IMG/VR virus record: IMGVR_UViG_2713896795_000004 | Location: 1-18,456 of that record | DNA from: a virus | Taxonomy: Duplodnaviria > Heunggongvirae > Uroviricota > Caudoviricetes | DNA: 18,456 nt | Direction: 5' to 3' (one strand) | Shown: piece after piece, positions 241-1,820 of the stretch | Numbering within the stretch: position 1 is the stretch's first letter | How the letters are laid out: the number at the start of each line of letters is the position of its first letter | The notes under the pieces: model-generated | The model's database searches: none | What the model was told of the DNA's origin: nothing | The model's input: only the letters and a program-made list of their open reading frames with translations | Translations under genes and position numbers: made by a program

Positions 241-582
241 ATGAAATACATACACTCAATAATAAAAGATTGGGGATACAGTCATAACTATCACGATGCC
301 GTACTAAATCACTTTCCTAATCAGGGAATGTACATCTTTGCAAGTGGTGAACTATCTTTCATGTATGACTACTTCCATCATAGGTGGACTGAAAGAACTC
401 ATACAGAAGAAATAACACGTAAACTACTTACAGAGTTCACGGAAGAAATGATCTTTCAGGAATGTACATTATATGATGCAGAATTAGTTCAGAAGGTGCA
501 AAGAGAAATACTCAAACACCACAAAGGCCAAATCACTTATATATGGATACCAAATGAGAAACCTAAAAATCACATACAATAA
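241..582 (+). CDS. hypothetical protein (113 aa)
   Basis: Track ORF 106..582 begins at a TTG in GC-richer flank. The first ATG (241) follows AAGGA with about 10-nt spacing and coincides with the switch to AT-rich composition, so the start is placed at 241. No recognisable motifs. Confidence 0.45.
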   Translation: MKYIHSIIKDWGYSHNYHDAVLNHFPNQGMYIFASGELSFMYDYFHHRWTERTHTEEITRKLLTEFTEEMIFQECTLYDAELVQKVQREILKHHKGQITYIWIPNEKPKNHIQ

Positions 583-973
583 CCCACGAGGCTTGATATT
601 CAATGACCGAGTATTAGCCAGGCGTTATGCAGTCAACCGTAAAGGCATATTACTAAATAATACTATCAAATACGATCATCCCCCTGATTACTATCTAGGA
701 CTGAATGAGGCGGAATACTTCCAATTGTCCGTAGTGATGGGTGATCTGGACGAAATAATATTCATGTCAGACTGTATAATCAATGGAGTAAAAATCATGC
801 AAATAGAAATACTAAACAATAACCCACTAAATTTTAGAGCACGTATCAATGGTGGACTAGACTTATATATTCACCATAAAGATGGAGTTGTCGCAAGTCA
901 GAGAATCCCCAATATAGAGGCTATAAAGAGCTACGTAGCTGGTGGAATCCATAAGGACGTACAACGAACATAG
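554..973 (+). CDS. hypothetical protein (139 aa)
   Basis: ATG-initiated ORF overlapping the previous gene by 29 nt, suggesting translational coupling in one operon. No recognisable family. Confidence 0.45.
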   Translation: MRNLKITYNNPRGLIFNDRVLARRYAVNRKGILLNNTIKYDHPPDYYLGLNEAEYFQLSVVMGDLDEIIFMSDCIINGVKIMQIEILNNNPLNFRARINGGLDLYIHHKDGVVASQRIPNIEAIKSYVAGGIHKDVQRT

Positions 974-1442
974 AAGAGATTAAACGCATTCTAAGGGGCG
1001 GGCAGGACGTTATAGAGGAACTATCAGAAGATGAGAAACTACAGAAGAGTATCAATAAACATACTGATTCAATCGCTAAAGCAGCGAAAGCAAAAAAAAC
1101 ACGCAAGCCAAAAGCATAAAACAAAGAAGCCTCTCTACTGGTGGTTGTCTCATGCTGTAAATCGCCTGACAAATATTCATAGCTATATTGAGCATAAGGC
1201 ACACGCACACATAAAAGCGTATCTAAGGTAATTGATCGTCCGAATAATTACGGTACTGAATTTGAGTTCTCGAAACCAACCAACTATATCGGGGGTAATT
1301 TATAGTTTCATAGTTGCAGTAGTAGTTGGTGTACTATATGATTCTTTAGACGTACAAATAAAAATCCATTGATGAAGTATTGCAGTTTCAAAAAGAGTCT
1401 CAACAACTAATTCCTCACGGTAAATAACAGGAATAAGCCACA

Positions 1443-1820
1443 ATGAAAAAAGTAGTACTGGCTCTAATATTCATCGCTCCTTCTGTACTGGCAAATGTAG
1501 AACTTGCTAACGACGGACTATATCGGTGCGATGTATATATGTTTAAGGAAGTAGGTAAGCGTAACATCCCCCTAGATTCATTCAATCAATCGGGGTATAT
1601 AAGTATCGATAATAGATATGTGTCAAGTAACTTTGGCACTGAATCGGTAACATACAAACCACTAAAGCAAATCAATGGTAGATTGTTTGCCATGGGCGTA
1701 AATACCCCCGACTACATTTATATATATGAATACGAGAAAAAACCTGTATATATGATCGGTATCACTGATAATGCGATATATATGACTTTCACCAACTGTA
1801 ATTTAATAGATAACCTGTAA
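1443..1820 (+). CDS. secreted/periplasmic hypothetical protein (125 aa) with N-terminal signal peptide
   Basis: N-terminus [20 protein letters not shown] has the form of a Sec signal peptide (basic n-region, hydrophobic core, A-x-A-like cleavage site). AGGA upstream of the ATG. Confidence 0.55.

Follow-up and report, generated by a model that had tools for sequence, protein, structure and literature searches.

The locus considered here raises the question of whether three small open reading frames (ORFs) that stand beside a gene for an OLD-family nuclease belong with that gene or with the prophage around it. They occupy positions 241 to 1820 of an 18,456-nucleotide stretch of caudoviral DNA (positions 1 to 18,456 of IMG/VR record IMGVR_UViG_2713896795_000004), referred to throughout as the window. 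The first-pass annotation had described ORF1 (241..582), ORF2 (554..973, overlapping ORF1 by 29 nucleotides) and ORF3 (1443..1820) as a cargo operon of three small proteins, one of them secreted, that point toward the nuclease gene. Their positions, the overlap and the orientation were borne out, the three ORFs on the plus strand converging on OLD on the minus strand, as was the placement of these small genes within the variable, accessory part of a prophage; their proposed grouping fared less well. ORF1, ORF2 and ORF3 are ordinary orphans carried by a mosaic prophage that is decaying. In particular, we consider it reasonably probable that the interval is a mosaic, partly decayed variable accessory region, bounded on one side by an intergenic region of regulatory or iteron-like character and on the other by the small terminase gene (terS), of a rare, AT-rich, siphovirus-type prophage of Escherichia coli and Shigella with a serine recombinase, in which ORF1 and ORF2 form a coupled pair, ORF3 encodes a separate exported protein, and none of the three belongs to the OLD module. 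The window's prophage is integrated beside msyB, by a 620-residue large serine recombinase, and relatives with a terminase region 85-87% identical are found in yegD in two complete E. coli genomes.

The relationship to OLD can be traced by following the nuclease gene into other prophages. It encodes an ATPase/Toprim nuclease of 606 residues (2703..4523, minus strand) with the Pfam domains AAA_15 and OLD-like_TOPRIM, and its best match is the single-gene, P2-type Old model of PADLOC (1.5e-74). Like P2 Old, a single-gene class 1 OLD nuclease, it combines an ATPase with a Toprim domain and stands alone, and it is to the three ORFs a neighbour only. The gene is part of a module (1830..4851) that starts ten bases after the ORF3 stop codon at 1820. 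A collinear block is present in seven complete genomes, those of E. coli C2 and six others, with the OLD cassette proper (2563..4851) 92% identical. In C2 the block immediately precedes terS in a prophage that is only a distant relative (terS 37% identical), and that prophage, the one examined among the seven genomes, has no homologues of ORF1, ORF2 or ORF3 even at the protein level. Conversely, ORF1 and ORF2, and an ORF3 of 84% identity, are also found in prophages without OLD. Furthermore, the divergence from the related locus L006 changes across the junction, with 91% identity on the ORF3 side versus 97.6% on the OLD side. As the module recurs without the ORFs, and their homologues without OLD, they are neighbours by recombination and not partners.

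The contrary view, that the three proteins act as sensor, regulator or immunity partners of the nuclease, would draw on their proximity and convergent arrangement, and on the observation that an ORF3 subtype of 96-100% identity always adjoins OLD in four loci of the msyB lineage. Set against the recurrence of the module with other neighbours, the step in identity at its edge and the single-gene character of its best match, this view, which had been offered as one of two options in the first-pass annotation, appears to us very improbable. Searches with PADLOC also found no counterpart of ORF1, ORF2 or ORF3 in the described OLD, Gabija, PARIS or retron-Eco8 systems, and none of them qualifies as a conserved OLD partner gene of the UvrD-like helicase, AriB or reverse transcriptase/msr kinds.

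If not partners of OLD, are the three ORFs genes at all? Three ATG-initiated ORFs of at least 110 residues lie in 1..2700, versus at most 1 (mean 0.044) across 500 shuffles of the sequence. The ratio of nonsynonymous to synonymous substitution rates (dN/dS) against homologues in related loci is 0.17-0.21 for ORF1, 0.11-0.16 for ORF2 (codons 1-138) and 0.12 for ORF3. Taken together, the shuffle test and these ratios establish all three as real protein-coding genes. A good Shine-Dalgarno sequence (AAGGA) precedes ORF1 and a plausible one (AGGA) ORF3. The lack of any recognised motif, remarked on earlier, was confirmed, as no family match was recovered for the three products in Pfam, PHROG, NCBIfam or PADLOC, and tblastn against 50,697 phage records yielded zero matches. 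Word-indexed protein searches returned only Escherichia/Shigella prophage copies, in 2, 3 and 10 clusters across the three ORFs; ORF1 accounts for three clusters, every one from E. coli. Among 5.8 billion proteins all homologues of ORF1 and ORF2 were likewise Escherichia/Shigella prophage copies, and only 2 of 5,426 complete E. coli genomes carry such homologues. Scans of IMG/VR and GTDB added 3 loci for ORF3 and none for ORF2. The AT-rich composition that the ORFs had been said to share is real (34-38% GC, with OLD at 34%), but it fails as a mark of cargo: the prophage has 39% GC over 4975..11884, compared with 54% in the flanking chromosomal gene, and a composition that is low in GC prophage-wide does not single out these three genes.

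The notion of an operon of three does not survive scrutiny of the interval between ORF2 and ORF3. In the homologues of ORF2, which are basic proteins of 171-178 residues, a helical segment near the C-terminus leads into a basic tail (...VPVPKTKKPRKTKKPT); the window's version of 139 residues is a shortened form of these proteins. A DNA alignment locates the cause in the deletion of 1 nucleotide between positions 966 and 967 (CAACG-AAC versus CAACGCAAC in five other loci), which brings a stop codon after residue 139 and leaves the remaining ~48 codons open in another frame up to 1118. This out-of-frame tail (966..1118, plus strand, frame 1) reads NIEEIKRILRGG...KKTRKPKA and matches the ORF2 fragment of loci L006 and L007. 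Judging from the alignment, ORF2 is here a recently truncated gene that has lost its basic C-terminal third, unless the draft assembly is in error. The tail is followed by the remnant of a lipoprotein gene (1124..1304, plus strand), representing the frameshifted 3' part, or the last ~50 codons, of a 126-residue gene. The remnant matches L001 11262..11430 by blastn, and tblastn resolves it into two frames covering residues 77-94 and 96-126. Between the ORF2 tail and this remnant ~2.3 kb are missing relative to L001, comprising five genes and the 5' part of the lipoprotein gene. A 66-residue ORF at 1031..1231 was considered as a further gene and rejected, being an artefact of the junction that fuses sequence from the ORF2 tail region with the lipoprotein remnant. 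Since ORF3 thus lies 470 bp from ORF2, across pseudogene debris left by a ~2.3-kb deletion, the three genes do not constitute one operon, and only ORF1 and ORF2 remain as a coupled pair. The wider interval is itself recombinant, as its identity is split between two lineages: 45..~1020 is ~85% identical to prophages of the yegD lineage, and 844..1904 is 91% identical to the msyB-lineage loci L006 and L007.

The members of the pair are predicted to be cytoplasmic proteins without hydrophobic segments, ORF1 (113 residues, an orphan) with an isoelectric point (pI) of 6.3 and ORF2 with one of 9.4. They are syntenic in the prophage of strain WGI31CT, one of the yegD relatives, and in three metagenome-derived loci, and the 29-nucleotide overlap is identical wherever coordinates were compared (L001, L004, L005); the two genes form an overlapping pair that is probably translationally coupled. 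Neither protein matched PDB chains (by profile search in the case of ORF2). Structure prediction, which the first-pass annotation had proposed for each protein, gave an unusable AlphaFold model for full-length ORF2, with a predicted local distance difference test (pLDDT) of 39. A possible relationship of ORF2 to an HNH-like protein of 201 residues from the same prophage family was rejected, as hhalign aligned 31 residues at a probability of 4%.

The overlap had suggested a toxin-antitoxin pair. In type II systems of the HigBA type the toxin gene comes first, and overlaps between the paired genes are usually shorter than 29 nucleotides. ORF1 and ORF2 share with type II systems the arrangement of small overlapping genes, here conserved between loci, and the contrasting charge of the products, ORF1 being slightly acidic and ORF2 basic; also, in the loci examined ORF1 is always accompanied by at least the first 139 residues of ORF2. 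Yet no toxin or antitoxin domain was found for either protein in Pfam, NCBIfam, PADLOC or PHROG, and the genes are separable in nature. L002 and the complete genome NZ_CM151386.1 have an intact ORF2 and no ORF1, which means that ORF2 is not a toxin restrained by ORF1. L003 carries a gene of 116 residues inserted between the two, L006 and L007 retain ORF2 only as an N-terminally truncated fragment, and in the window it is ORF2 that is truncated while ORF1 is intact. The only polarity left is that of ORF1 as the toxin and ORF2 as a DNA-binding antitoxin, and we regard a toxin-antitoxin function as decidedly doubtful. With low confidence, we instead take ORF1 and ORF2 for phage-expressed accessory proteins acting in the cytoplasm, where they would serve, for example, in host takeover or anti-defence.

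ORF3 presents a different picture, as its 125-residue product bears an export signal. The signal peptide (1443..1493) is a leader of 17 residues with two lysines (MKK), a hydrophobic core of 13 residues (KD15 maximum 2.35) and a cleavage region PSVLA|N, with proline at -5 and V/A at -3/-1. These n-, h- and c-regions are of the type recognised by signal peptidase I, and their layout is invariant across six family members. Predicted cleavage at VLA|NV leaves a mature protein of ~108 residues that begins with NVEL and has a pI of 5.0. The signal peptide claimed for this protein is thus a convincing one of the Sec type, as judged by rule. No lipobox cysteine is present in the family: the residue after the cleavage site is N, K, V or another residue other than cysteine, and the first cysteine is at position 29. 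The invariant residues of the family are G25, L26, Y27, C29 and V31 on the N-terminal side and F116, N118 and C119 on the C-terminal side.

A member of the ORF3 family occupies the same slot in 11 of 11 close loci, following the lipoprotein gene or its remnant, and tandem copies are present in L002, L011 and L012. The mature parts of the different subtypes share 19-47% of their residues, and members within one subtype are under purifying selection (dN/dS 0.12). At the DNA level the signal-peptide segments (51-54 nucleotides) are 87-100% identical between subtypes, but the mature domains only 39-59%; the window's ORF3 is an exception, with signal-peptide DNA 73-76% identical to that of the other subtypes. 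This contrast is repeated within a single locus, as the tandem paralogues of 126 and 128 residues in L002 (11969-12745) have mature domains that are 22% identical and signal-peptide DNA that is 87% identical. An exhaustive phmmer search of 1.84 billion representatives recovered ORF3's own cluster, three paralogue clusters and two repeat-protein artefacts (P0018, P0019), and no match at E<=1 was found in PHROG or Pfam. In the relatives the genes around the slot encode lipoproteins, from which a cluster of envelope-targeted proteins may be recognised; no relation was detected between ORF3 and the neighbouring lipoprotein.

An AlphaFold model of ORF3, built from three sequences, is of low confidence (pLDDT 57, predicted template modelling score 0.49) and consistently all-beta, with nine strands. 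Foldseek returned nothing significant from the PDB (E>=0.05), and the best matches in BFVD, likewise non-significant (E about 2e-3, TM 0.44), are small phage proteins labelled uncharacterised, lipocalin-like or lipoprotein. ORF3 is probably an exported small beta protein, closed by a disulfide, in the periplasm. The mature protein would fold there as a small barrel or sandwich and would bind either an envelope component or a part of an incoming phage, and such binding would protect the lysogen in the manner of superinfection-exclusion proteins. The exchangeable, discrete subtypes suggest a specificity function, and their divergence would reflect differing targets. In sum, we infer that ORF3 is probably a periplasmic factor that protects the lysogen against incoming phages.

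Superinfection exclusion had been proposed for ORF3 by analogy with known envelope proteins of phages. Among these, T4 Spackle (Sp; PHROG family phrog_1586) is a small, soluble, periplasmic superinfection-exclusion protein that is not a lipoprotein. T5 Llp, Cor of phi80 and N15 (phrog_1119) and lambda Bor are phage or prophage lipoproteins that block receptors or alter the envelope. ORF3 resembles Sp in being small, phage-encoded and, by prediction, a soluble periplasmic protein with a cleavable Sec signal peptide and not a lipoprotein; it differs from Sp in its origin from a temperate phage and in its predicted all-beta fold, and it matches neither phrog_1586 nor any other PHROG at the threshold given above. 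With Llp, Cor and Bor it shares its character as an envelope-targeted phage accessory product (targeting being predicted for ORF3), but it lacks the lipobox cysteine, has by rule a signal peptidase I cleavage site and displays no sequence similarity to them. A neighbouring lipoprotein in L001 (12024..12482) does match the Cor family in PHROG, weakly and over the signal peptide only. The proposal stands as a reasonable guess from the Sec signal, a trait common to ORF3 and these proteins, and does not extend to membership by sequence in the Cor, Llp, Sp or Bor/Lom families.

An alternative, and the main one for ORF3, is that it serves lysogenic conversion or fitness, with the animal host or the environment as its target, by way of Bor-like serum resistance, adhesion or stress tolerance. 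A predicted secreted envelope protein encoded in a prophage accessory region beside lipoprotein genes would be consistent with this role. ORF3 has, however, no similarity to Bor, Lom or a known virulence family, and the occurrence, in a single phage lineage, of several discrete subtypes and of tandem copies fits a phage-phage arms race over specificity better, though this last point is suggestive only; on balance we hold a fitness role to be rather unlikely. On the side of lysogen protection, a bolder formulation may also be entertained, if tentatively and as somewhat unlikely in its full extent. According to this, the ORF3 family would constitute a novel kind of specificity determinant that temperate phages place in the periplasm: hypervariable two-cysteine beta proteins in a fixed slot, which would acquire new mature domains through recombination at the nearly identical signal-peptide sequence, with each subtype neutralising a different incoming phage component or envelope-acting toxin and tandem arrays such as that of L002 broadening the protection.

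A further point of reference for all three genes is the moron, an autonomous transcription unit in a phage genome (PMC3594210). As with the morons of lambdoid phages (PMC3594210), they are variable accessory genes between conserved phage modules and differ among related prophages. No promoter or terminator of their own was detected around ORF1/ORF2 or ORF3, a crude consensus scan finding no plus-strand sigma-70-like site upstream of ORF1 or ORF3 and no plus-strand terminator in 1..2900. ORF3 differs from morons in that a gene of its family fills the slot of every close relative, in the manner of a variable core gene rather than an optional addition.

Several points weigh against our overall reading of the interval. 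The roles of all three ORFs are inferred only, and the signal peptide of ORF3 was assigned by rule and not by SignalP. The gene lacks promoter-like or terminator-like flanking sites on the plus strand, so that it may go unexpressed in the lysogen; the frameshift in ORF2 could be an assembly error of the draft genome; and the truncation of the prophage by an insertion sequence (IS) means that any of the three genes may be heading for decay. The extreme form of this last concern is that ORF1, ORF2 and ORF3 are functionless leftovers of a dead prophage. The frameshifted ORF2, the pseudogenes that flank ORF3 on both sides and the IS element that cuts the prophage after its head genes all speak for it. 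Against it, ORF1 and ORF3 are intact, and dN/dS values of 0.1-0.2 indicate that the families are maintained, a measure that reflects the past of the lineage and not this particular copy. We thus consider mere leftovers unlikely, and retain the reading of a partly decayed accessory region.

The broader context supplies further signs of mosaicism. E. coli contig LFKC01000009.1 (GCA_001077955.1) encodes a protein that matches ORF1 at 100% identity, and the locus surrounding this protein reproduces the window. The gene order of the prophage runs from the recombinase through ~10 kb of co-oriented small uncharacterised genes to terS, a gpA-type terL, the portal, a protease-capsid fusion and head-tail genes. 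After the last of these an IS3-family element (orfA/orfB, 11936..13209) truncates the prophage, which in this part of the window (11936-17038) is joined to the DUF551/xis/int end of a lambdoid prophage that adjoins a pectinesterase-family (ybhC-like) gene. The window's copy is defective. With the left end of the AT-rich prophage at msyB and the IS/lambdoid junction at the other end, either a large rearrangement or a composite defective prophage is implied. By comparison, the yegD relative in WGI31CT is a seemingly complete siphovirus-type prophage of ~33 kb, with tail tube, tail tip and lysozyme genes at its far end. The terminase of the nearest sequenced phage is just 37% identical, and the lineage is essentially uncharacterised and very rare among E. 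coli genomes. Of the ~10 kb of non-structural genes that these ~33-kb prophages carry, we scanned ~7 kb (L001 6326-13675 and L009). Within the part scanned no repressor or replication gene was recognisable, the only recognisable products being a ribbon-helix-helix (RHH) protein of 50 residues and the HNH-like protein of 201 residues mentioned above.

Upstream of ORF1 lies a non-coding region with features of its own. A conserved block of ~65 nucleotides (50..114), relatively GC-rich (TTCCTCGCTATCGCTACGGAATCCCGCAAGCGTTCTCCCTTCGCTTTGCTCGATCC) and with the ORF1/ORF2 pair ~130 bp downstream, is 95-100% identical in all loci of the family, even in L006, whose sequence differs on either side of the block and in the genes further downstream. 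As an RNA it has no match in Rfam and a folding z-score of +0.68, and its variation is too low for covariation testing; it may be a cis-regulatory site. A minus-strand ORF of 48 residues over 1..147 was rejected as a gene, as it is not conserved, having no ATG in L001, L003 and L004 and, in L001, the locus translated, an internal stop. Further upstream, outside the window, lie lineage-specific clusters of direct and inverted repeats of 10-15 nucleotides, each just downstream of a non-homologous gene of ~160 residues: TTCCGATAATGG x3 in L008 (9599-9719, or 41-161 bp upstream of window position 1), ATGGGCTAATGG/CCATTAGCCC x6 in L001 (7722-7889) and CATCTTTCCA/TGGAAAGATG x4 in L006 (7346-7507). 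These clusters resemble operators or iterons, each varying together with the protein that binds it, and the region upstream of ORF1 and ORF2 looks like a regulatory or origin region.

On the other side of the three genes, the OLD module retains traces of a more complex ancestry. Its left edge is the 3' remnant of a class I S-adenosylmethionine (SAM)-dependent methyltransferase gene (1830..2077, plus strand; phrog_3820, 3.4e-10), with blastn matches to L002 8001..8213 and L013 5111..5358. This is followed by the remnant of a gene of 94 residues with its downstream spacer (2109..2514, plus strand), which matches L013 6606..7008 by blastn and, by tblastn, at 52% over 61 residues, and is collinear with E. 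coli C2. Between that remnant and OLD stands a perfect heptanucleotide tandem repeat, (TAATGAG) x 10.3 (2505..2576); C2 appears to have one or two units at this point, a behaviour typical of microsatellites. A perfect palindrome of 28 bp (2663..2690; TATATGCCAGTACT/AGTACTGGCATATA, TATATGCCAGTACTAGTACTGGCATATA), conserved in C2, occupies the space between the convergent genes, 13 nucleotides after the stop codon of OLD, and may be a bidirectional terminator of the convergent units or a recombination site. OLD travels with the class I SAM-dependent methyltransferase and small genes, and is always found just upstream of terS, in reverse orientation, in two only distantly related lineages, yegD/msyB. 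The site upstream of terS may be a hotspot for insertions; alternatively, a functional association may exist between the methyltransferase and OLD.

The main value of these findings lies in a correction. OLD emerges as a module complete in itself (1830..4851), which travels from one prophage to another in the company of a methyltransferase. ORF1, ORF2 and ORF3 are unrelated to it and belong to the backbone or accessory genes of the prophage that received it, one of them already broken. In the process a rare prophage lineage of E. coli and Shigella has been documented, the entire non-structural region of which is unannotated. Finally, ORF3 introduces a family of small secreted proteins that combine a conserved leader with a hypervariable body, and offers a modest lead as a candidate lysogen-protection factor.

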